A stretch of DNA of 39,992 nucleotides, from the UHGV virus genome UHGV-0186582, one strand, 5' to 3'. Positions 1,344 to 23,517 of this stretch are shown piece by piece. The stretch comes from a virus. The notes under the pieces were generated by a model. The model was given only the letters and a program-made list of their open reading frames with translations, ran no database searches and had not been told where the DNA came from. A program made the translations under genes and the position numbers. The stretch's first letter is position 1. Each line of letters opens with the position of its first letter.

Positions 1344-2005
1344 GCTCCAACATCGAACCCGCCGATGTATTCGTTATCCATATCAAACCCAAAGAATTTA
1401 GAGCCCTCGGATGGTGCTTCTACCGAAGGCGTTTCAACATCACCGGCCCATACGCCAGCTGCTTTAACGGTGAGATAGCCCTGTTTGATAGCGGCAATCA
1501 GTTCAAGAGACACATCAGAAATATCAGTCTCGGGGAATACCCAAACCGATATCGTCATGTCCTGGTTGTCGACGATCTGCATTCGCAGCCCGGAGCCTGC
1601 TGTTGCCGCGTCAAGAATTGCCGGAAGCGAATCATTCCGTCCGTCCCAGTTATTAATCGCAATCTTCGCTTTAAGAATGACACGATAAGTTTTATCGCTG
1701 AGATACATGTATCCTGAATCAGGATCGTATGGTCCCTGCCATACCCCCTGATCATATCCAAGCCCGTCGGTATCCCAGCTGAAATAGACACCTGATATAG
1801 GCTGGCTGACAACACGGCTACGCCCGATCCACAATCCCAGAATGTCAAGTTGCACACCAACCGCAGAGTCAATATCAAATGCAGTAATCAGCCCTCTGGT
1901 GGCAGCCGCAACATCAATAAGCGGCCGGGTCATCAGATCAACATGTGCAAGAAATTTAGGTTTGGTGACGTGGTAGTTCGTGATTAGTTCGGTGTATTTG
2001 CTCAT
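1325..2005 (-). CDS. Tail/baseplate protein (Mu gp48 / YmfQ-like)
   Basis: 226-aa ORF between baseplate J-like gene and tail fibre; assignment by position and family recall. Confidence 0.5.
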   Translation of the reverse strand: MSKYTELITNYHVTKPKFLAHVDLMTRPLIDVAAATRGLITAFDIDSAVGVQLDILGLWIGRSRVVSQPISGVYFSWDTDGLGYDQGVWQGPYDPDSGYMYLSDKTYRVILKAKIAINNWDGRNDSLPAILDAATAGSGLRMQIVDNQDMTISVWVFPETDISDVSLELIAAIKQGYLTVKAAGVWAGDVETPSVEAPSEGSKFFGFDMDNEYIGGFDVGAWGTIL

Positions 2006-3201
2006 GACTCCACCGTTATAACGATATTTTCCGGGGTACAGGACGCAGATTCGTTGTATCTGATATCAATGTTTGATGACGACAAAGCCCCCGGGGATTT
2101 CCCAATCGTCAGTTCCTGAATATCGTAATAGCGTGCATTCCCGCCACTCACCACGCCAAGATTCGCCGGTGAGTAAATGCGACTTAAAAGGACCGAATCA
2201 CCAATCGTCAGACTATTGATATAGTCGGAAATAGCCTGCTGGATCTGCTGCCCTATCTGTGAGGTATAACCCGTAAAAACTTTTAATTTAATCCGGGCAT
2301 AAACAGGCACATCACTGGAACGCGAGAATTTGATTACATGGGGATTGCCGTATTTATCCGGAACCGTAACGGATGTTGTACCGTGAGTGGCTGTCCCCTG
2401 GCCTTTATTCCCTCTGATAGCCTGAGCAATATCCGTCACATCACCGCCATCCACAATTACAGCAACAGAGTGTGGCGGTAACCCGTTGCCGTCCTCCGAA
2501 CCAGTATCGTTTTCATAGAGTTTGTGGCGGGTTACACCGGTAATATTAGAAACAGCACCATCCAGTGCTTCAAATGGGGTTATTGATGGCAACGCAACAC
2601 TTTGCGACTGGCGGATACGTAACTCCGAATCAGTTTCTGCCGGAGTGCCCACAGTGGCTGCAGCAGGATTGGTTACCGAAACCCAGCCACGGGTTGGCGT
2701 ATTAATTTCAGTGATAGTTCCAGCCAGCGCCGCCACTGCGCCACTGACGGAACATGTTGCGGTCACCATCACTGTACCATCCACTCCGACCACCACTGAA
2801 GCAGGCAAACGCCATATCACATTATTACTGTCTTTCACGCTGCCATTAATGATGGTTGTTCCGGTAGTTCCTGTAAGAAGCAAATCAACCGTAGAGTTCG
2901 TCGCGCCTTTACGTGAAATACCATTTATTTTCACGTTACTGGTCAGTGCAGCCCCATAGCCGGTTGCCGGTGAAAAACAGTTGTAGACAGTTATCGCCGT
3001 ATTATTGGCATCATGAATCGCCAGCGCCATCAGAGCCACCATCTGGCCGTCTTTGCTGTCCGGTTCGAGGTAGGCATCACTGCCATAAATCTGCTGAAAA
3101 TAGCTAATCAGGGTGCTGAGTATCGTCTGATAATCAGGCGCACTGATCCCCTCCGCGGTTACCTTTGCAGATAAACCGAGAGAATCAAGGTTCAGAGCCA
3201 T
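2002..3201 (-). CDS. Baseplate J-like protein (Mu gp47-like)
   Basis: 399-aa ORF, overlapping starts/stops with neighbours; position in Mu-like baseplate order. Confidence 0.6.
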   Translation of the reverse strand: MALNLDSLGLSAKVTAEGISAPDYQTILSTLISYFQQIYGSDAYLEPDSKDGQMVALMALAIHDANNTAITVYNCFSPATGYGAALTSNVKINGISRKGATNSTVDLLLTGTTGTTIINGSVKDSNNVIWRLPASVVVGVDGTVMVTATCSVSGAVAALAGTITEINTPTRGWVSVTNPAAATVGTPAETDSELRIRQSQSVALPSITPFEALDGAVSNITGVTRHKLYENDTGSEDGNGLPPHSVAVIVDGGDVTDIAQAIRGNKGQGTATHGTTSVTVPDKYGNPHVIKFSRSSDVPVYARIKLKVFTGYTSQIGQQIQQAISDYINSLTIGDSVLLSRIYSPANLGVVSGGNARYYDIQELTIGKSPGALSSSNIDIRYNESASCTPENIVITVES

Positions 3202-3554
3202 TACGCCTCCGATGTAACAGTCGTTATTCCATAAAGAGTGTCGATTTCAGCGGAAAACATGACACGTCGGGTCGTGGTATCCACCGTCGTATTGAAAGAG
3301 AGGATTGATTTAACGCCCCGCGTTTCGAGGATGCGCTTACGGATCGCCAGGTTGTAGGTTTCCGGCTTCTGCTTACCGAGTACGGACTGGATCCACGGAG
3401 TCCCCTCGGTGGTGTCGAGAAACCATTGCCCATACCACAATTCGAATCGCGTTTTTACCGCCTGCGCCACGGCCTCCGGTGAGTTAATCAGCCAGGTGTC
3501 ATCACCGCTGCCAAAGGTATAATCGCCATCGGCGTCTTCACGTCTGTATCGCAT
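3201..3554 (-). CDS. Baseplate wedge protein (gp25/GPW-like, Mu gp46-like)
   Basis: 117 aa; size and position between spike and J-like gene. Confidence 0.5.
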   Translation of the reverse strand: MRYRREDADGDYTFGSGDDTWLINSPEAVAQAVKTRFELWYGQWFLDTTEGTPWIQSVLGKQKPETYNLAIRKRILETRGVKSILSFNTTVDTTTRRVMFSAEIDTLYGITTVTSEA

Positions 3555-4306
3555 CAGTTCACCCCGTCTGTGTTGCTTCCGCCTCGCTGAACCCCGCCGT
3601 GCGTGTGAGTATCATCAATTGACTTGCCGTTAGCTTTAACGGTACCGATAAACTCGACAGCGCCGGTGATTTTGGATGCAACTCCAGAAGCAACAGACCC
3701 CACCATTCCACCCAGCCAGGACAGTAGCCCGTGAATGGTTACTTTCGCCGAGAAGTCGGCCAGCGGGGTAACTACATCCAGACCGCCAGGCGCTACGATT
3801 TTAATTTTCTGCGTATCCGGATTAAGGTCGATGTACGTACTTCCATCAACACTTCGAAGCTGCGCCGACGTGGTGCTGACATTCTTAATTTTGTTGGGCT
3901 GAGATATTTGACCCACTGAGCAGGTGGCGTCGGACAGGTCATGTATGCGGTCGTCGACAGGTTCCTGCACTCCACCGTTTTGCCAGAAGAAATCAATACA
4001 GCGGTCTTGAAACTTAAGTTCGCACTCATCGCCGGGGCTCACCGGCAACGTTAAAGTAACTCCCCCGGCCGTTGGGAATACCACGGGAACATCCACCAGC
4101 AGCGGGTAAGGTTTTGTCACCCGGTTACCATCGTTATCGATCTCAACGTAACGGATAGCAGGCTGCACAACCGCCGTAACCGCGTCAGAATCGAATGACT
4201 GAATAATGCCAGGCAAAGCGACTCGGATCTGGTTCTTTGTTGTTTCCCGTTCAGATTTGAATGTTTCAGCAAGGTCGCCGCTGCGGGTCTGGTCAGATAC
4301 TGCCAT
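3554..4306 (-). CDS. Baseplate spike / assembly protein V-like (Mu gp45-like)
   Basis: 250 aa; ATG at 4304-4306 with GGAG RBS upstream; position in baseplate cluster. Confidence 0.5.
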   Translation of the reverse strand: MAVSDQTRSGDLAETFKSERETTKNQIRVALPGIIQSFDSDAVTAVVQPAIRYVEIDNDGNRVTKPYPLLVDVPVVFPTAGGVTLTLPVSPGDECELKFQDRCIDFFWQNGGVQEPVDDRIHDLSDATCSVGQISQPNKIKNVSTTSAQLRSVDGSTYIDLNPDTQKIKIVAPGGLDVVTPLADFSAKVTIHGLLSWLGGMVGSVASGVASKITGAVEFIGTVKANGKSIDDTHTHGGVQRGGSNTDGVN

Positions 4307-4320
4307 TTAGTAGGCTCCAG

Positions 4321-4348
4321 AAAGCAAAAAACCCGCCGGGTGGCGGGT
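4321..4348 (-). terminator. Rho-independent terminator closing the inserted cassette
   Basis: Minus strand reads AAACCCGCC-ACCC-GGCGGGTTTTTTGC immediately after the TAA stop (4349-4351) of the 138-aa gene. Confidence 0.6.
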
Positions 4349-4765
4349 TTATGAATCGTAGGTTTTCAATTTTTCGAGTTCATCAGGAGGAAGTTCTATG
4401 AAGGTTTCCTCTGCTAATTTTATCAGCCTGGGAAGCATCGAATCAGCTTGCTGATGAGCGTTTGGGCTGATGATTGCCAATATCTGATAGTGTTCATCGA
4501 TATAAAGATGCTGAGCATATACCAAAAAATTATCACATGTCCGTTCACTCAGAGATGCTTCTGGAGGCCAGGGTTTATCGCCAGGTAGCTTTAAGTGAAT
4601 TTTCCTGATGTTGGCAGCCATCGCATCATAGTTACGTTCAAAACCGCCTAACGAACCAAAACACCAGAACTGGGAACCCTTTGAAATATAATCGGCAAGC
4701 ATTTGAGCATACTTATGTGCTGCAGCTAAATGACGCAATTCTCCCGTTATACTGACTTTTGCCAT
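4349..4765 (-). CDS. YafO-like toxin domain protein (putative mRNA interferase-type toxin)
   Basis: 138 aa; motifs LADYISKG, KIHLKLPGDKPWPP, SERTCDNFLVYAQH, YQILAIISPNAH, LIKLAEETF align with recalled E. coli YafO (TADFISYKRDG, HIHLANENNPFPP, SRTNDEAHLVYCQG, WLLIAILKPEPH, KIGKMAEAF); from memory, not an HMM search. G+C about 40 percent, below flanking tail genes. Confidence 0.5.
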   Translation of the reverse strand: MAKVSITGELRHLAAAHKYAQMLADYISKGSQFWCFGSLGGFERNYDAMAANIRKIHLKLPGDKPWPPEASLSERTCDNFLVYAQHLYIDEHYQILAIISPNAHQQADSMLPRLIKLAEETFIELPPDELEKLKTYDS

Positions 4766-4766
4766 G

Positions 4767-5339
4767 TCACATCCATTTAGGGGCGTCGGCTCCCAGCATC
4801 TTATGCGATGTAGAGATCAGTTCAATAGCCTCTTCACGGGTAACATTATCTGACAAGAGTTCAGCCAGGAAAGGCTGCGATTGCCTAACTTCAGCGGCCA
4901 ACTGAGTTGCAGTGTTCTCGACGGCGGTCAACGCACGAACATATTTGCGTTTTAATGGGCGCAACATTTGCAGATGGCCTTGCCACATAGGGGACCTTTC
5001 CGCTTCAGAGAACATATCCACTAAATGTCCTTTAGCATTTCGGCATGCCTTGGCAAGACCTTCGAGATGGGATAAAAACCCGTCCGGAAGCTCATCAACA
5101 ATGATTCTTCCATTTCGAAAAGCTTCGAGATGAGACATGCCTTCCTTCGCGGTATTTTCGATTTCTTGAGCGCGTGCAGCAATCGCGGTACAACGACGAA
5201 ATGCCTCTTCAGCATCTAATCGTTGTGGCAGTTCACAAGCATTAGAGATCAGGGGTTTGAAAGCACCGTTAACAGCTTCCTGAACCTGATTCATTTGTTG
5301 TGTAATTGTTGCCAGCGCAAATGCGTAGCTAATCGCCAT
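4767..5339 (-). CDS. Hypothetical ~190-aa protein, upstream partner of the YafO-like gene (candidate antitoxin/immunity); no recognised family
   Basis: Stop TGA is 1 nt from the downstream ATG (TGA-C-ATG); likely start is the ATG at 5339 with GAGGG RBS (ORF track starts at TTG 5345); no resemblance to YafN/Phd-type antitoxins that I can see. Confidence 0.5.
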   Translation of the reverse strand: MAISYAFALATITQQMNQVQEAVNGAFKPLISNACELPQRLDAEEAFRRCTAIAARAQEIENTAKEGMSHLEAFRNGRIIVDELPDGFLSHLEGLAKACRNAKGHLVDMFSEAERSPMWQGHLQMLRPLKRKYVRALTAVENTATQLAAEVRQSQPFLAELLSDNVTREEAIELISTSHKMLGADAPKWM

Positions 5340-5352
5340 ACCCAATCCCTCT

Positions 5353-5367
5353 GTCGTTTTAAACGAC
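5353..5367. promoter_or_regulatory. Perfect 15-bp palindrome GTCGTTTTAAACGAC in the AT-rich region upstream of the cassette; candidate operator
   Basis: Read directly; lies just upstream of the RBS of the 190-aa gene inside a 162-bp AT-rich intergenic region (5346-5507). Confidence 0.3.
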
Positions 5368-5507
5368 TATACACCACTTATTCAAAGTTAGCTGAGCGCT
5401 AAAAGTTCGCAAAGTTTAGTGATCATGCAACCACCTAGCAAGCGATAAAAAATCATTATTTAGTGAATGTGAACAAACTCAACACTATGCAGAAATGTAA
5501 CTTTTGG

Positions 5508-5861
5508 TTAACCATCAACCTTTTTACACGGGAAAGAACCGATGATTTTCGGCGCGTCCATGCTGTTCTGCAGTAGCTGAACGTTCAGAAAGCGCGTTTC
5601 GGTACCAGGGCGACGAATGTATTCAAAGCCGTAGTTGTTACCGTCTTTGGCAGGCATGAGGCCCATGTCTGCCTTCATACCGTTGCCGCTACCGAGCGTT
5701 TTAATTTTCTGGGAGGTAACAGTCTCACCATTAATCCTGAACAATGAATCAGGAACCAACTCTAATTTATAACCACCACACTGAAGCGTGACGCCGCCAG
5801 GATTCGCGGCAAATGCCGAACCTGAAAGAAAACAGAGTCCGATAACAATCCACTTTTTCAT
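5508..5861 (-). CDS. Small secreted protein with Sec-type signal peptide; unknown function
   Basis: 117 aa; N-terminus MKKWIVIGLCFLSGSAFA-ANPGG; two Cys in mature part; 2-nt gap to upstream baseplate gene. Confidence 0.5.
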   Translation of the reverse strand: MKKWIVIGLCFLSGSAFAANPGGVTLQCGGYKLELVPDSLFRINGETVTSQKIKTLGSGNGMKADMGLMPAKDGNNYGFEYIRRPGTETRFLNVQLLQNSMDAPKIIGSFPCKKVDG

Positions 5862-5863
5862 TC

Positions 5864-6928
5864 TTATCCTTCCCTCTGCAGAGACGAAGTAGAGCGGAGA
5901 TCCGCCGCGCCGCGCGCTTCACACATCATGTCCATGTACCACGCCTGGCCCCTTGTGTCGCCAGTGTACATAATCCCGCGCACAATATAAACGCCATCTG
6001 TTGCGATGCTGGCAGGCTGCGCCGTGGTGCCGCTGAGCGTGATATTTCCGTCCGTGTTCTGGTCGGTGATCTTCCCACCAGCCATCGCGATATCATTGTT
6101 CGACAGCGCGGTGCGGTACACGGAAGCCTGATCCAGCTGAATAAGCCCGTTAACCCGGATGTTCGGATTAATGAGCGCACGGACGTTTACGCCGTTACCG
6201 ATGGTCTGCTGCGGCATGCCAATAAGCCCGGTAGCACTGTTGAGCACAATCGCTTCGTGAACATATTCGTTATTCGCCACCATCTGGCGCTGACCGTCCA
6301 CGAATTGCCATGTTGCGCCACATTGCCCGGCTACGTTATCCATTAGATGCCGCGTCATGCCAAAGAGCACCCGCCCCCGGGGGAATACAGTAGCAGGCAT
6401 TTCAGGCGTCAGGCCTTCGGTCGCGCCTTTGGCTTCGAAGTCTTTCATCAGCGCACGGTTCACATCAGCGACCGTGTAACCGGCAGCCAGCGTCTGTGAG
6501 GTTATACTGGTGGCAAATGCCAGATCCGTATCTGCTGCCTGAATCAGGACATAGGAATCAATAGGGCTGTCTTTTCCTGTGACCGAGTAGCGAATTTCTC
6601 CGCTGAAAATCAGCCCGTAGTTGCGGCCATCACTCTGGCCCACATCTGCCGCGTCGACTTCGCGCACGGTCCCGACGTCGCTTGCCGCCACCTCAGGCGC
6701 GATACCGTCGTAACCGGCAATCAGCCGCACTTTCGAAAACTCCTGCCCGGTAATTCGGTTCACAGTATCTGCCGAAAGGTTATAAATTTTGATAGTCCCT
6801 ACCCGGGACGCGCTGCTGATGTTGAACCAGTCGATCGTAAAGGTGACTTTGAAATCACTTAGCTCAATTCCCTGACCATTCCCGTCCACAAGCTGCAGCT
6901 CGAAATGTCTCATCCAGTTCTGTGACAT
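5864..6928 (-). CDS. Tail/baseplate hub-like protein (Mu gp44-like position)
   Basis: 354-aa ORF in tail cluster; assignment by position. Confidence 0.45.
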   Translation of the reverse strand: MSQNWMRHFELQLVDGNGQGIELSDFKVTFTIDWFNISSASRVGTIKIYNLSADTVNRITGQEFSKVRLIAGYDGIAPEVAASDVGTVREVDAADVGQSDGRNYGLIFSGEIRYSVTGKDSPIDSYVLIQAADTDLAFATSITSQTLAAGYTVADVNRALMKDFEAKGATEGLTPEMPATVFPRGRVLFGMTRHLMDNVAGQCGATWQFVDGQRQMVANNEYVHEAIVLNSATGLIGMPQQTIGNGVNVRALINPNIRVNGLIQLDQASVYRTALSNNDIAMAGGKITDQNTDGNITLSGTTAQPASIATDGVYIVRGIMYTGDTRGQAWYMDMMCEARGAADLRSTSSLQREG

Positions 6929-6930
6929 GC

Positions 6931-7233
6931 TTACTCCGTTGATACCAGTAAATGACTGCGGCCGCCCAGATCAGTTTTCGTGGGATAATCCTGTGTGTTG
7001 TCATCGCAGACCACCACCAGCTTAAAACCAAGTCCCATACAGGCGTACTGCGCCAGCAGATCAGCGCCAGTGACGAGAGGAATACCGGAGATTACCGGCT
7101 CCCCTCTGTCGTTCTGCAGGTCCATAATCCAGTAAAGATCGCGCCATATGATGCTAATCTGCCAAGTGACACCACCCAGGACGATGCTGAACTGCTGGTT
7201 GTCCGCTGTCAGCGGAATTTCCTGAATTATCAT
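6931..7233 (-). CDS. Hypothetical tail protein
   Basis: 100-aa ORF tightly packed between tail genes. Confidence 0.4.
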   Translation of the reverse strand: MIIQEIPLTADNQQFSIVLGGVTWQISIIWRDLYWIMDLQNDRGEPVISGIPLVTGADLLAQYACMGLGFKLVVVCDDNTQDYPTKTDLGGRSHLLVSTE

Positions 7234-7820
7234 TAGCCGCCTCCCAGTAATGACGCCACGTTACCAGTGATGCTTTTCAGCAGTGAAGTATCTGGAGGCT
7301 TTGTGGTTTTGTTGCCGCTGTTCTGTACCGCCGACGTGCTGGCCCCTTCCTTCATGTTGGTTTTATCCGCGACGGTAATCTGCTGTGTCCGGGAGATAAT
7401 GACCTCCCTCAGGGTGAGGACGGCGGACAGGACGTTTTCGGTTGTCTTGTCCGTCGTCACTTCCAGCGCCCGGATCAACATGTTGCTGTACAGCCGTTTA
7501 CCGGTTACCACATCGAAGGGGATACGGATTTCCTGCAGATCCAGTAGCTCCTGATACGTCTGCTGAGGACTCAGGCCGAGCATGCTGGTAGCCGTCAGAT
7601 TACTGGCAAAATCCAGCAATGCACCGCCACCGGCGAAACCAACCTCCATCACCACTTCTGACGGTTTTTTATAGGCATGATCAGCGACAGCGGCCCCGAC
7701 CTCTACCGGATGCTCTGTTATTTCAAGCATATCTGTATGCTTCTCTGAAATAACAACACTGGGAACAATCATTCCTATTTTTCTGCTCTGCTGATGAAAA
7801 AGTGTAGAGAGAATATCCAC
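7233..7820 (-). CDS. Hypothetical tail protein
   Basis: 195-aa ORF immediately downstream of tape measure gene. Confidence 0.4.
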   Translation of the reverse strand: MDILSTLFHQQSRKIGMIVPSVVISEKHTDMLEITEHPVEVGAAVADHAYKKPSEVVMEVGFAGGGALLDFASNLTATSMLGLSPQQTYQELLDLQEIRIPFDVVTGKRLYSNMLIRALEVTTDKTTENVLSAVLTLREVIISRTQQITVADKTNMKEGASTSAVQNSGNKTTKPPDTSLLKSITGNVASLLGGG

Positions 7821-9829
7821 TAACCCACCCTCACCTGATTACTTCGCATGACCTGAGCATTTGCAGACTGTTGCCGACGTGCAACCTCATTACCGACAGC
7901 GTGCGGATCTCCGCCACCGTAAATGTGGTAAGTATTTTGCTGGTTAACCTCTGTCACTTTGCCACTAATTCCTGCCACGGCAGCCTTATTAATCAGCTCT
8001 CGAGAATAGATATTTCTTCCATTTTCATGCTGGATAATACTGCTCATCAATGCTGACATGGTTTGCGGATCGCTCATATTCAGGGTAGCCCGGGGATCCA
8101 CTCCCAGACGTTGCGATACAGCCCTGATATACGCAGTTGTGTTGTTATTATCAGACGCAGGTGCCCAGGTAGAGATAATTTTCTCCACGCTGTTTATTCC
8201 ACGTCCGGCGTACAACATTAACTGACGAGCAAGAGCCCGTAATCCATCAAAAGCAGTTTCAAATCTGGCAAATCGCCCGCCCGGGCGTTCAAGAGAAGCC
8301 CCTGCCTGACCAGCAAAATTAAGGTTTCCCGGATTGTTATTCCGTTCTCCTCGTTTCGTAGCCTGTGCATATTGTTCCGGCTCATCATCACCAAACCAGC
8401 CGCGTACCGTCCGGCCCACGCTGCGAGGATCGAATCCCCAGTGCTCTTTAATCCAGTCGGCAGTACTGTTAGCGCTGTCTGTAACCATCGGCATCGCTGA
8501 CGGATTTTCGCTGCCCTGATTAAGTATCTGTTTGCTGATGCTGACGGCATCAGCCCAGCGGCCATCTTTGATAGCGTTGAGCAGGTCGGCGATCATGTTC
8601 AGCATTTTGCTGAATTCGCCCATCTGGTCGATGAAGTTGCTGAAATCCCACTTCAGGGACCATGATTTGGGGTCAATATTGAGCAGTTTCGCCAGCGCTT
8701 TCGCCAGTTCATTAACAGACCCTTTCAGGTCACGAACCATCTTCAGCGCGGCATCGACCTCCGGCTTCCACTTACCCCAGTCAATCAGGCTGTCGCCGCC
8801 TTCCTTCCAGGTCTGATAGTCCTCCCACAGAAGGGCAATCCCCGCCGCCAACGCGGTAATGAGGCCAATCGGCGACATCCAGAACGTACTGTTCAGAATG
8901 CGCAGTGCAATCGTCAGCGCGCCAAACAGCGAGATGAGCTCCCGCGTTTGCTTATCCAGCGATTGCCACCAGGTGATAAGGCCTGATGTCCCCTCAATCA
9001 GTCTGAAGAACAACCGCCCGATAATATCCCCGAGCGCCAGAATGCCTTTTATGGCTTTCGTCAGGGTCTGCTCGATACGCGGGAAGTTGTCCAGGATATG
9101 GCGGCGCAGAGTGTCCAGCGAACCCGCAAGCCCACCCGCAAGATTAGAGCCGATTTTGTCACGGGCCATGCCTGCCATCGCGCCAAACTCACGCAGGGAG
9201 GTCATAAATTTGTTGGAGCTTCTGGCCGCCTCGTCAGCATTGAAGCCGATAGCTTTCGCCATTGCGCTGTACTGCCCGGAGAAGCCACCCACACCCCGGC
9301 GCATCGCCATAAGGGTATTTTCGTCAATGCCCAGCATCTGCGCATACTGGTTAGCCCGGTAATACGGCATGCCGCTGAGCTTCTGGCCTACACCTGTAAA
9401 AATAGCGGCCATGTCACGCATGTTACCGCTGGCATCACGGGTCTGTACGCCCAGGCGATTCAGAAAACCTTCTGCACCGGGATTGTTACGAATAAACCGG
9501 GAGAGGCTTTCCAGAGAAGATCGCGCAGCGTCCACGCTGCCGCCAACCTGCGAAACCGCATAGCCAATAGACTGAATTCCCTGGACTGTCGCGCCGGTGC
9601 GCTGTGACGCCCAGTAAAGATTATCCAGGCCGGAGGCAATCTTAGCCGTAAAGGCCACCACAGACAGTGCAGCTCCTTCAACGGACACCCCCATTTTGAT
9701 GACATTTGCAGTTGTACCGGCGAGGACAGAACCGAACTTTTTCGCGCCTGCCTCATCCACACTGAAGCCAAGCGAGACGAGGAAATCTTTAATAGTTTCA
9801 GCGTTCATTATCCTCTCTCCATTTCTCAA
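7820..9829 (-). CDS. Tail tape measure protein
   Basis: 669 aa, long helical/Gly-Ala-rich protein following tail chaperone; ATG overlaps upstream frame stop (ATGA). Confidence 0.75.
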   Translation of the reverse strand: MRNGERIMNAETIKDFLVSLGFSVDEAGAKKFGSVLAGTTANVIKMGVSVEGAALSVVAFTAKIASGLDNLYWASQRTGATVQGIQSIGYAVSQVGGSVDAARSSLESLSRFIRNNPGAEGFLNRLGVQTRDASGNMRDMAAIFTGVGQKLSGMPYYRANQYAQMLGIDENTLMAMRRGVGGFSGQYSAMAKAIGFNADEAARSSNKFMTSLREFGAMAGMARDKIGSNLAGGLAGSLDTLRRHILDNFPRIEQTLTKAIKGILALGDIIGRLFFRLIEGTSGLITWWQSLDKQTRELISLFGALTIALRILNSTFWMSPIGLITALAAGIALLWEDYQTWKEGGDSLIDWGKWKPEVDAALKMVRDLKGSVNELAKALAKLLNIDPKSWSLKWDFSNFIDQMGEFSKMLNMIADLLNAIKDGRWADAVSISKQILNQGSENPSAMPMVTDSANSTADWIKEHWGFDPRSVGRTVRGWFGDDEPEQYAQATKRGERNNNPGNLNFAGQAGASLERPGGRFARFETAFDGLRALARQLMLYAGRGINSVEKIISTWAPASDNNNTTAYIRAVSQRLGVDPRATLNMSDPQTMSALMSSIIQHENGRNIYSRELINKAAVAGISGKVTEVNQQNTYHIYGGGDPHAVGNEVARRQQSANAQVMRSNQVRVG

Positions 9830-10040
9830 TGCGCCGCTGGTTATCCGCTTTTACCGCCAGATGGTCATTCAAGAGAGCAATGTCATACAAATCGACAGAG
9901 CCATCTTTAAGTGCTGTATAGGGAATTAACCCGGCGTCAACCGGATTGAGAAGGTAGGACAGCCCGTCCGGCAGGCTGTTAAACGTCAGCCCTGTTGCAG
10001 GCTCTGTGTCGTGCTGGTAAGGGGTGTAGGCAAAAAATTT
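9826..10040 (-). CDS. -1 frame extension of the tail assembly chaperone (G/GT-like programmed frameshift product)
   Basis: Slippery heptamer A-AAT-TTT (minus strand, plus 10034-10040) about 17 codons before the chaperone stop; the -1 frame stays open ~70 codons to a TGA overlapping the tape measure ATG. Confidence 0.45.
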
Positions 10041-10438
10041 CCCAGTGAATCGGCGACCACCCGCGCCACCAACTGCAGCATGGTTAGCAGGTCGATATCA
10101 TCGAACATCAGCTGACCGCTGTTGAATACCGGCGTCCATCCGTCCATGTGCTTACGTGACACTACGGCCAGGCAAGGATGAATAATCGCGTTGGTATCTT
10201 CTTCAGTCAGGGAAGACAGTTCCTCAGCGATACGCGGGAGCATGGTTTCAAACACCGGTTTTAACTGCTCGAATTTCACGGTGTCGATTTTGCCGTCAGC
10301 AGGCAAACATGAGCGAATGCTCCCGAAATCTGACATCATTCCCGCCAGTACCGGCAGAAGTTTGCGGGTCACTTTCAGCTGGTCAAAAACGCTGAGTTTT
10401 GCCACGCGATATTTCATGCCTTTGATTTCGAATTCCAT
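9986..10438 (-). CDS. Tail assembly chaperone
   Basis: 150-aa ORF between tube and tape measure; slippery site near 3' end. Confidence 0.55.
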   Translation of the reverse strand: MEFEIKGMKYRVAKLSVFDQLKVTRKLLPVLAGMMSDFGSIRSCLPADGKIDTVKFEQLKPVFETMLPRIAEELSSLTEEDTNAIIHPCLAVVSRKHMDGWTPVFNSGQLMFDDIDLLTMLQLVARVVADSLGNFLPTPLTSTTQSLQQG

Positions 10439-10441
10439 GTA

Positions 10442-10882
10442 TTAAAACTCCCCGAGAACCTGGTCAATCTTGCCGCAGTCAAACACCCACGGCATCGTAT
10501 TACCGGTTTTAGCGTTGGCATTATCCGGTTGTTTCTGGAACGCAACACTACGTGCCGTGATGATGTCGCCGCTGACCTTGTTTCGGATCACAATAACGTT
10601 ATTCCCCCATGTGGCAGAAGACTGGCTCTGTGCGTTATACGCCAGCGACAATTTTTTATTTGTCGGTGATGTCTTCAGAAGGTTAACGGTAATCGTCCCG
10701 CTTTTATCTGCATGGAGACTGTGCATCACTTCGCCATCAGCACCGATGGTCATGGTGTTTTTAGGACCGCCCATCGCAACCACAATCCCCTCTTCAGAAC
10801 TTGCAGAACCGTACCCGAGGTCAATCGAACCGGTCGGGCCGGTCAGCGTCGCAGTGACATCCATAAAAGAATAGGTAGACAT
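10442..10882 (-). CDS. Tail tube protein
   Basis: 146 aa, directly after sheath gene. Confidence 0.55.
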   Translation of the reverse strand: MSTYSFMDVTATLTGPTGSIDLGYGSASSEEGIVVAMGGPKNTMTIGADGEVMHSLHADKSGTITVNLLKTSPTNKKLSLAYNAQSQSSATWGNNVIVIRNKVSGDIITARSVAFQKQPDNANAKTGNTMPWVFDCGKIDQVLGEF

Positions 10883-10892
10883 TCACTTCCCC

Positions 10893-12038
10893 TTAGCGAA
10901 CAACGTTAATCTGTACGTCAGCGTAATGAACCGCACCTGCAAGTTTTATTGCAGCCTGAATCACCGGAGCCTTACGGGCTTCACGTTCTGATTGTGCCTG
11001 TTCATCCAGCGGCTGGGCGTATACGTAATAACCTTTGGGCAGTGTGTCACCTGATGACAACTGACCAAGGTCGCCCCCGTTCCATACGCCCGGAGCAATC
11101 AGTCCATTCTGAACGGCCTGATCCAGTGATTTTTCAACACTTGATAACAGTCGGGTAATACCGGCTTCAGTCTGGGGTACTTTCGTGGTGCTGGTATAAA
11201 GCAGGTTATAGAGGTTGGTCTGCACATAATTCTGTAACCAGTCCAGGCCGTGGCGTTCATCAAAGAAATCGCCGTTAGCCATCACTCCCTGCTGGAGGAT
11301 AGCCGTATCATTTTGGTAGTACACGAATACATTGCAGTTTTTTGCATCAAGTGCCGATGCCTGGCTGACTGTCAGTGTTTCATACCCGACACCCGGCTCC
11401 TGCTTAAACTTGAGCGTAATCGCGGTATTACTGCCATTGAAATTAACCGTGAATGCCCGGCCAAATGCAGATAACGCAGCGTATTTATTACCCGATGAAT
11501 ACTGAATAAAACTGCGTGAATATCCGGCGGTTTTCAGTTTTGATGCCAAATCATCGCTGGATGCAGTCTGTAGGCATTTCTCATCGCTTGTCGTAATCGC
11601 CAGAATACGGCTTACAGAAGAGGATTCGATCGCCGCAGCCACTTTCAGCCAGTCTGCATCCGGAATATCTTCATCGCCTGCAATCCCCAGCCCATACCAT
11701 GAAGTATAATCGAGCATGGCATTCACAGCCTGCTCCAGCGTCTCAGGCGTGGCCTGTTCGCTGTCTCCCTTCGTTTTCACCCAACGACCAACAAAAACCT
11801 CCTGAGGTTTCGGTGATTGTGAGAAAAACACCTGCGCAGCTTTATATTCTGGTGATTCCACGCCAAAATCTTTTCCAATATCTTCCGCGGCAGAATAACG
11901 ACGAATGCGCTCACTTACCGGAATGATTGTGGACGGGCCGAGAATGAGTAATGCACCAAAATTTCGCCCTGATGCTGCACGCGGCGACATGATCACATCA
12001 ACATTAACAACGTTTGATACAGGCAAGCCCTGTGCCAT
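10893..12038 (-). CDS. Tail sheath protein
   Basis: 381 aa preceding tube gene; contractile-tail gene order. Confidence 0.6.
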
Positions 12039-22269: not shown

Positions 22270-22737
22270 TCATCGAAGGCATTGCGTCCTGATGTATTCC
22301 TGAAGCGTTCTCAGTGCTGTTTGGTCGCGGATAATTCCGTCCCGGATACCGAGAACGTTTCGTCCAGCAACTGGAGAGAGTTCGACGGTGGCATCATTGC
22401 CCATGCCGGAGGCGCTGGAGGCTTCGGCTGAGGATGGCACAGGGCATTTTCCTTTGACGAGCACCCTGCCACCATTATCAAGCTTGCGACGAAGAGCATC
22501 ATTTTCAGCTTTCGCATCAGCTAACTCCTTCGTGTATTTTGCATCGAGCGCAGCAACATCACGCTGACGCATCTGCATGTCAGTAATTGCCGCGTTCGCC
22601 AGCTTCAGTTCTCTGACATTTTTGTCGCGCTGGGCTTTGTAGGTAATGGCATTATCACGGTAATGATTAACAGCCCATGAAAGGCAGACAATGATGCAGA
22701 TAACCAGAGCGGAGATAATCGCGGTGACCCTGCTCAT
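22270..22737 (-). CDS. Rz: Spanin inner-membrane subunit Rz
   Basis: N-terminal half near-identical to lambda Rz ([40 protein letters not shown]...); C-terminal half diverges. Confidence 0.8.
22311..22517 (-). CDS. Rz1: Spanin outer-membrane lipoprotein Rz1 (embedded in Rz, +1 frame)
   Basis: [19 protein letters not shown] lipobox and proline-rich [11 protein letters not shown]; embedded in Rz as in lambda. Confidence 0.7.
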
Positions 22738-23210
22738 ACCTCAATCTCTCTGACCGTTCCGCCTGCTTCTTTGAATTTTGCTATCAGGCTGTCAGCCTTA
22801 TGCTCGAACTGACCATAACCAGCGCCAGGCAGTGAAGCCCAGATATTGCTGCAACGGTCGATAGCCTGACGAATATCACCGCGATCAATCATCGGTAAAG
22901 CGCCACGTTCTTTAATCTGTTGCAGTGCCACGGCGTCCTGGCTTTTCGGAGAGAAGTCTTTCAGGCCAAGCTGCTTGCGGTAGGCATCCCACCAACGGGA
23001 AAGAAGCTGGTAGCGTCCTGCTGCTGTTGATTTGAGTTTGGGGTTTAGCGTGACAAGTTTGCGAGGGTGATCGGAGTAATCAGTGAACAGTTCGCCACCG
23101 ACAATAACATCATAACCATGATTTCTGGTTTTCTGCCGTCCGTTATCAGTTCCCTCCGACCACGCCAGCATATCGAGGAACGCCTTACGTTGATTATTGA
23201 TTTCCACCAT
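22734..23210 (-). CDS. R: Endolysin R (lytic transglycosylase)
   Basis: 158 aa, essentially lambda R sequence ([42 protein letters not shown]...). Confidence 0.9.
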
Positions 23211-23517
23211 CTTCTACTCCGGCTTTTTTAGCAGCGAAGCGTTTGATAAGCGAACCAATCGAGTCAGTACCGATGTAGCCGATGAAAACGCTCGTTATAT
23301 AAGCGAGATTGCTACTTAGTCCGGCGAAGTCGAGAAGGTCACGAATGAACCAGGCGATAATGGCGCACATCGTTGCGTCGATTACTGTTTTTGTAAACGC
23401 ACCGCCATTATATCTGCCGCGAAGGTACGCCATTGCAAACGCAAGGATTGCCCCGATGCCTTGTTCCTTTGCCGCGAGAATGGCGGCTAACAGGTCATGT
23501 TTTTCTGGCATCTTCAT
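23194..23517 (-). CDS. S: Holin/antiholin S (S107/S105 dual start)
   Basis: 107 aa, near-identical to lambda S including MKM dual-start N-terminus; upstream DNA also matches lambda. Confidence 0.9.

Follow-up and report, generated by a model that had tools for sequence, protein, structure and literature searches.

Exclusion lipoproteins such as Cor (phages phi80, N15 and T1) and Llp (phage T5) are exported proteins encoded in or beside tail and receptor-binding genes; they act in the cell envelope against superinfection and against the loss of progeny on debris, and those of T1 and T5 are produced during lytic growth. Phage T4 carries Spackle (gp61.3), a protein of ~100 amino acids (aa) with a signal peptide and a disulfide, which is a periplasmic inhibitor of the tail-spike lysozyme and targets the tail tip after penetration. 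In phage HK97, the moron-encoded exclusion protein gp15 lies within the tail-gene cluster (Cumby et al. 2012, PMC3430355). Here we describe a 117-aa protein encoded on the minus strand, at positions 5508..5861, of the virus genome UHGV-0186582, a stretch of 39,992 nucleotides (nt) that was analyzed as a whole and is hereafter called the window; the gene lies inside the baseplate cluster of a myophage tail module, directly behind the baseplate hub gene. The protein is very probably exported by the Sec route to the periplasm and not part of the virion, being a long-standing passenger of Enterobacterales contractile-tail operons that is predicted to fold as a small barrel, is probably stapled by a disulfide, and is probably made late.

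Each of the described systems resembles this protein in part. As with Cor and Llp, a small exported protein comes from the tail-gene region, and some members of the present family (P0140 and P0161, see below) are lipoproteins too; however, the sequences are unrelated, the window allele carries a site for signal peptidase I and not a lipobox, the gene goes with the hub and not with a receptor-binding protein, its alleles are uncoupled from fibre type, and a role in exclusion is here something that we infer. Spackle is similar in size, signal peptide, predicted disulfide and periplasmic location, but it is helical whereas the 117-aa protein is predicted to be a beta-barrel, and both the presence and the alleles of the 117-aa gene are independent of the type of tape-measure lysin. 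With HK97 gp15 it shares the placement of a non-structural gene among tail genes; gp15 is reported to block DNA entry of the same phage type, yet is an inner-membrane protein expressed from the prophage as an independent transcription unit, whereas the 117-aa protein is predicted to be soluble and periplasmic, with no promoter of its own found. By analogy, the protein would act in the manner of Cor/Llp, Spackle or HK97 gp15 without being a family member of any of them.

Results

A conserved exported protein directly behind the baseplate hub

The coding sequence runs from an ATG at 5861-5859 to a stop codon at 5508-5510, leaving a 2-nt gap to the TAA of the hub (5866-5864), and its Shine-Dalgarno sequence, GGGAAGGA (5867..5874, minus strand), can be read within the last hub codons. 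An earlier note, made from the sequence alone, had described a 117-aa open reading frame (ORF) with a Sec signal peptide and two cysteines in the mature part, 2 nt past a hub-like gene; both coordinates and sequence agree with this description, which left the strand unstated. The N-terminus is MKKWIVIGLCFLSGSAFA/ANPGG, and residues 1-18 (5808..5861, minus) read as a signal peptide with an MKK n-region, an h-region WIVIGLCFLSGS and a cleavage site AFA|A, where signal peptidase I is predicted to cut after AFA. The mature domain would then comprise 99 aa (5511..5807, minus; ~10.7 kDa, isoelectric point ~9) with two cysteines, C28 (codon 5778-5780, minus) and C112 (5526-5528, minus), the third cysteine of the protein, C10, being inside the signal peptide.

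The ORF is a real gene, given that a large protein collection yielded 389 homologs at a cut-off of E<=1e-3 (top E 5e-69), and that the ratio of nonsynonymous to synonymous divergence (dN/dS, omega) is 0.04-0.14 over the conserved residues 44-114; between alleles, dS is saturated. A full-length profile match places it in phrog_3443 (E 9.8e-47, residues 9-116 against positions 6-114 of the 115 in the profile), a 71%-identical protein in the same position in E. coli TUM1880 bears the RefSeq name 'STY1065/STY2022 family phage-derived protein', and an identical sequence is already deposited from a Caudoviricetes metagenome-assembled genome (DAY59659.1), whose 90% cluster also holds the S. Typhi protein Q8Z7T9 ('Secreted protein' in UniProt). 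Judged by these matches, the window gene belongs to the uncharacterised family phrog_3443, for which 'STY1065/STY2022' and Q8Z7T9 are probably other names; in the library searched, literature on STY1065, STY2022, neighbouring locus tags, SEN34 and Brunovirus yielded no functional or virion-proteomic data.

The 117-aa protein has no match in Pfam, NCBIfam or PADLOC, and a profile search of PDB sequences with the family gave chance matches only. Searching 1.84 billion proteins with a hidden Markov model of the family, we found only 45 clusters that matched. Some giant repetitive proteins (P0122, P0152, P0160 and P0162), which matched in multiple stretches with E down to 3e-36, turned out on inspection to be compositional or repeat artefacts rather than homologs. 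In the GenBank records of SEN34 (SEN34_20, L001 5109-5342) and ST340-VIM1phi10.1 (L004 5088-5321), the gene is annotated from an internal methionine, giving a product of 78 aa that has lost the signal peptide; in both phages the full ORF begins directly past the hub.

Export signals are present in the 117-aa protein, as far as its sequence can be read, and they recur throughout the family. Signal peptides were judged in 128 family members with a heuristic n-h-c / -3,-1 test, in place of SignalP itself. By this heuristic, a strongly hydrophobic N-terminal core is found in 125/128, and a small-residue -3/-1 cleavage motif before the first conserved cysteine in 126/128, with the failing members being mostly truncated gene calls. 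In alignments of the family, the N-terminus drifts in sequence yet always begins with charged residues, followed by a hydrophobic core and a cleavage motif of small residues, and C28 and C112 are fully invariant. The pattern that the earlier note had set against its own reading, i.e. a gene conserved in all related tail modules without a signal peptide, is not what we see, the signal peptide being always there.

The window allele, which reads IGLC with L at -1, does not carry the lipobox [LVI][ASTVI][GAS]C; alleles with FSAC or LFSC possibly do, and two distant relatives, P0140 (292 aa, LSGC) and P0161 (265 aa, VSC), are lipoproteins by this motif. Both have an additional N-terminal domain and share their C-terminal domain with the 117-aa protein, and the gene of P0140 begins one base past a hub gene. 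A lipobox is incompatible with entry into a virion that is assembled in the cytoplasm. Another distant relative, P0163 (L180 2651-2995), is 114 aa long and has the signal peptide as well as the two cysteines; it is encoded outside any tail module, on a contig with Rep3_N and NikA-like genes that is apparently a plasmid.

AlphaFold predicts, with good confidence, a small beta-barrel of roughly eight strands. Structure comparison matched it to avidin/calycin-like barrels, no closer to PliC/MliC/PhiA than to avidins or designed barrels; these are generic barrels, and no specific structural relative was found. C28 is on the first and C112 on the last predicted strand, and since these strands are neighbours in such a barrel, a C28-C112 disulfide closing it is probable. 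Three loops are nearly invariant in the family (INGETVTSQK, MPAKDGNNYG and QNSMDAPK; residues 36-49, 69-75 and 98-105), and three segments are hypervariable, indels included (residues 19-35, 57-60 and 84-89). If the strands run in order, the model would have two faces, with the invariant loops at one end of the barrel and the variable segments at the opposite end.

Long-term linkage to the hub and expression

The constant upstream neighbour of the gene is the baseplate hub (5864..6928, minus; phrog_196 'baseplate hub', E 2e-88; Pfam E217_GP41 below cut-off), and the central spike (3554..4306, minus) forms the downstream edge of the hub-spike junction. The exported-protein gene is the first after the hub in SEN34 (Brunovirus), Mulock, YP3 and vB_EcoM-683R1, and likewise in two Klebsiella prophage-derived phages where the homolog is only 30-32% identical. 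Across 88 related phage loci (8 annotated phage or E. coli records plus 80 IMG/VR loci in which hub identity is 97% or more), a full-length homolog is present in 84. Among 39 loci from GTDB species-representative genomes, all Enterobacterales bar one probable contaminant, the gene lies no more than 100 nt after the hub in 33, at hub identities of 50-97%; the spike follows at once in 5 of these GTDB loci, for which reason hub, exported protein, spike appears to be the basal arrangement. In a marine metagenomic relative the genes run plug, exported protein, hub, spike, so that the gene still adjoins the hub. One contig (L194, CACSKA010000001.1), labelled Chryseobacterium sp. 18061, has a hub 92% identical to an enterobacterial hub, and is probably contaminated or mislabelled.

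In consensus scans of the minus strand, the interval 5862-7400 contained no promoter-like site, and no terminator came up after the exported-protein gene. For the window gene and its close alleles alike, the best promoter match in the preceding 200 nt scores 8/12, which is the background level, reached in 118/400 random 200-nt windows; over the full set of alleles, top upstream scores are 8 or 9 out of 12. The Shine-Dalgarno sequence is at the same place in every allele. Given this position within the hub and the lack of a promoter or terminator of its own, the gene is probably co-transcribed with the hub and the late tail genes, translationally coupled to them, and made late, when the cell is induced or infected.

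These observations do not agree with the suggestion that the gene is prophage cargo. A moron would be expected to have its own promoter and terminator, as the adjacent YafO cassette does, and to be sporadic; the 117-aa gene has neither signal, is coupled to the hub, occurs in 84/88 phage and 33/39 GTDB loci, and is kept across hub identities of 50-97%.

Such steady linkage could also be taken to mean that the protein is a genuine baseplate or tail-tip component, or an assembly factor, whose N-terminal hydrophobic segment stays uncleaved: it is always next to the hub, translationally coupled to it, and adjoins it even in the reordered marine relative. Against this stand the canonical but drifting n-h-c signal peptide, the lipobox variants and the conserved cysteine pair, as well as the presence of an unrelated protein in the same place behind 97-99% identical hubs. 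The gene is, moreover, missing from related modules. The hub is joined straight to the spike in Bordetella IFTN9, Acinetobacter AbTJ and Ralstonia PY059YO380, and the baseplate of Pam3, the composition of which has been determined, consists of gp18-20 and gp22-24 only (PMC11633184); because of these absences, the 117-aa protein is dispensable for this baseplate architecture. It is only from such more distant, non-enterobacterial modules that the gene is absent. A structural role is thus extremely improbable, and the earlier expectation that an exported protein does not belong among baseplate components is borne out by the signal peptide in essentially every homolog, by the absence of the gene where hub abuts spike, and by its replacement with a gene for an unrelated exported protein.

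Old alleles and a replaceable slot

The exported protein is the most divergent product of the module, with a mean pairwise identity of 75%, as against 98% for the hub, 97% for Dit, 96% for the plug, 98% for the sheath initiator, and 90% for both tape-measure protein and spike. In loci with hubs 97-99% identical, it is just 55-96% identical to the window copy, and the variation falls into approximately six discrete, deeply diverged alleles. With dS between them saturated, these alleles are evidently old.

Differences are concentrated in a patch of ~350 base pairs (bp) (5590..5950, minus), which covers the last ~10 hub codons and approximately residues 1-90 of the exported protein. When locus L022 is compared with the window, the two are ~100% identical over 7268-5949 and again over 5471-3552, and 50-65% identical over ~5950-5590; the patch has been replaced, in an exchange between otherwise identical phages. 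The last ~10 hub residues co-vary perfectly with the allele of the exported protein, and hitch-hiking is the simplest explanation, since the same stretch of the hub gene encodes the Shine-Dalgarno sequence.

In some sister phages, behind hubs that are 97-99% identical, the slot is filled by an unrelated exported protein of 153-154 aa with its own signal peptide and two cysteines. This replacement is found in L008 (3565-4029, minus), L077, L087 (5068-5526), L040 (where it is frameshifted), Hafnia phage yong1 and a Trabulsiella genome, with further coordinates at L092 3574-4029 and L219 2544-2999. A 17-codon remnant of the 3' end of the original gene is left in L008 and in the Trabulsiella locus (listed as L008 and L219). 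The 153-aa family has no Pfam, PHROG or PDB match, and homology to the 117-aa protein was rejected, as hhalign gave a probability of 2% with only the signal peptides aligned. In GenBank, the 153-aa gene of Hafnia yong1 is annotated from an internal start codon, which cuts off the signal peptide. Burkholderia phage Magia has yet another exported protein at the hub-spike junction, unrelated to the other two: gp21 (L094 3457-3828, minus; 123 aa, phrog_38062), which has a clear signal peptide and is encoded on the opposite strand exactly between hub and spike.

Polylysogens hold different alleles, e.g. four copies at 47-60% identity in Pantoea stewartii and two in Yersinia pekkanenii. The divergence, the discrete alleles, the swap patch and the differing co-resident alleles are together consistent with an arms race.

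Possible functions in the cell envelope

Our favoured reading, which we put forward tentatively and by analogy, is that the 117-aa protein may be a periplasmic binding protein serving in superinfection exclusion and/or progeny protection. The barrel would bind in the cell envelope and hinder phages with this type of tail while their infection is at the periplasmic stage, with the outcome that superinfection of the producing cell is excluded and/or progeny are spared from being wasted on lysing cells. The near-invariant end of the barrel (residues 36-49, 69-75, 98-105) would hold a conserved partner, and the opposite, hypervariable end (19-35, 57-60, 84-89) would be what distinguishes the approximately six old alleles moved by recombination between otherwise identical phages. 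A role in competition among phages fits best with the envelope location, the lasting linkage to the tail-tip genes of one tail type, the old but locally reshuffled alleles, the replacement by other exported proteins, and the exported proteins that other phages have at this junction, namely Magia gp21 and a Sie-like protein described below.

Several points weigh against this proposal. The protein has no similarity to known exclusion proteins in Pfam, NCBIfam or PADLOC, and its fold matches are generic barrels. Without its own promoter, it may not be made in lysogens, which is where classical exclusion acts. Its alleles show no coupling to the type of spike, tape-measure protein or fibre, which leaves it without an apparent cognate target among phages. 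The turnover of alleles could simply result from the adjoining recombination hotspot, and the allele differences in polylysogens may just reflect prophages that are generally divergent.

A narrower version, in which the protein would found a new class of exclusion determinants for contractile-tail phages, periplasmic and allele-specific, seems decidedly unlikely. Here, the barrel would bind the incoming tail tip after penetration, the C-terminal tail of the hub being a candidate target, and the ~350-bp patch, which includes the co-varying last ~10 hub residues, would act as a self-contained lock-and-key cassette, dividing prophages that are otherwise identical into 'exclusion groups'.

Masking of a receptor in step with the fibre, with co-inheritance of the Cor/Llp type, was rejected. 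Among 58 loci with 47 fibre types no coupling of allele to fibre type was found, and 6/8 recurrent fibre types pair with different alleles; this computational check on the receptor-blocking exclusion suggested in the earlier note was negative.

A Spackle- or PliC-like function would be periplasmic inhibition of the peptidoglycan hydrolase domain that incoming tails carry on their tape-measure protein. The C-terminus of the tape-measure protein (7823-8422, minus) is endolysin-like (7q47_A, E 2e-14; also found in the 1295-aa Gp29 chain 9vvp_L). This domain is modular (L001, L003, L089, L092, L093). SEN34 and YP3 keep the exported-protein gene with the central lysin segment of the domain replaced, L089 and Hafnia yong1 have an SLT domain at the lysin position, and Bordetella IFTN9 has a lysin domain of the window type without the exported-protein gene. 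With gene presence independent of lysin type, and alleles that do not track tape-measure types, inhibition of the tape-measure lysin is disfavoured and we give it little credence. For the periplasmic peptidoglycan-hydrolase inhibitors PliC/MliC/PhiA, the 117-aa protein has no Pfam MliC match and the co-occurrence test was negative.

A periplasmic protein that operon structure suggests is co-expressed late might also be an accessory factor in lysis or egress, e.g. one that modulates the breakdown of the envelope or its timing. The window, however, has a complete canonical lysis cassette elsewhere (22270-23517), with an S-type holin (23194-23517), a 158-aa ORF (22734-23210) that is a putative endolysin by its position between holin and Rz and has no Pfam match, and Rz (22270-22737). 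Related modules manage without the exported-protein gene, and allelic diversification would be unexpected for a lysis helper, all of which makes this role quite improbable.

Should the exclusion reading hold, this would be an unrecognised and very common family, with hundreds of sequence clusters, spread over prophages of E. coli, Salmonella (including Typhi), Klebsiella, Yersinia, Photorhabdus, Serratia and Pantoea. The family would then determine which of the related temperate phages get into a cell, and would bear on prophage ecology, on the choice of therapy phages, and on tailocin and phage engineering. Whatever the function, a signal-peptide gene within a baseplate cluster is not to be annotated as a structural protein, and the hub-spike junction of 'minimal' myophage tail modules has two parts: first a fixed slot for an exported protein, with old alleles, and behind it a freely used hotspot for cargo such as toxin-antitoxin and defence-like genes. 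This layout is of use for prophage annotation, and for mining defence genes.

A separate cargo hotspot and the YafO cassette

The stretch from the exported-protein gene to the spike (window 4307-5507) is a cargo hotspot, in which at least 12 alternative cassettes occur behind near-identical hubs (L009-L088). These include the YafO pair, a HEPN-like protein of 123-142 aa that has one or the other of two ~250-aa proteins as its partner, a membrane protein of 79 aa, and a 100+190-aa pair, and in some phages an exported 245-aa protein of phrog_8545, annotated in PHROG as 'superinfection exclusion Sie-like'.

In the window, the hotspot is occupied by a separate moron (4329..5507, minus) of lower guanine-cytosine content, made up of a promoter-like site found by consensus scan (5455-5482), a 192-aa gene with a profile match to phrog_35514 (4767-5345), a gene for a 138-aa YafO-family toxin (4349-4765; Pfam YafO_toxin, E 4e-17) and a strong intrinsic terminator located by scan (4329-4350), all on the minus strand; the two genes together span 4349-5345. 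The toxin is preceded by the 192-aa protein and not by a YafN-like antitoxin, and neither of the two was matched by PADLOC. The earlier idea that the 117-aa gene belongs to the same accessory island as this toxin cassette was abandoned, as the YafO pair comes with a promoter-like site and a terminator of its own, and is found in only 11/88 loci, beside at least 5 different alleles or replacements of the exported protein.

Proximity to this hotspot is one of the points in favour of a factor in lysogenic conversion or host fitness, in which the exported protein would be a periplasmic barrel that binds a ligand or a protein to the advantage of the bacterium (in stress, nutrition or host interaction), unconnected with the entry of phages. 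It is exported and adjoins a site with at least 12 alternative cassettes, avidin/calycin-like barrels are typical of small-ligand binders, and the distant homolog P0163 is found outside tail modules on the plasmid-like contig (Rep3/NikA). We nonetheless consider this explanation unlikely, in that no promoter or terminator was found, the gene is coupled translationally to a late structural gene, and it is kept with the hub across 50-97% hub identity, whereas true cargo at the junction is sporadic.

Other genes of the tail operon

The remainder of the tail operon is likewise on the minus strand. Upstream of the hub lie the sheath (10893-12038), tube (10442-10882), chaperone (9986-10438), tape-measure protein (7820-9829), a Dit-like protein (7233-7820) and a plug similar to Pam3 gp18 (6931-7233). 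Past the spike are the sheath initiator (3201-3554), Baseplate J (2002-3201), a second wedge protein (1325-2005) and the fibre (537-1343). Tail fibres are hyperdiverse, with 47 types at 85% identity in the 58 loci (L097-L176), while the other baseplate proteins are 90-98% identical.
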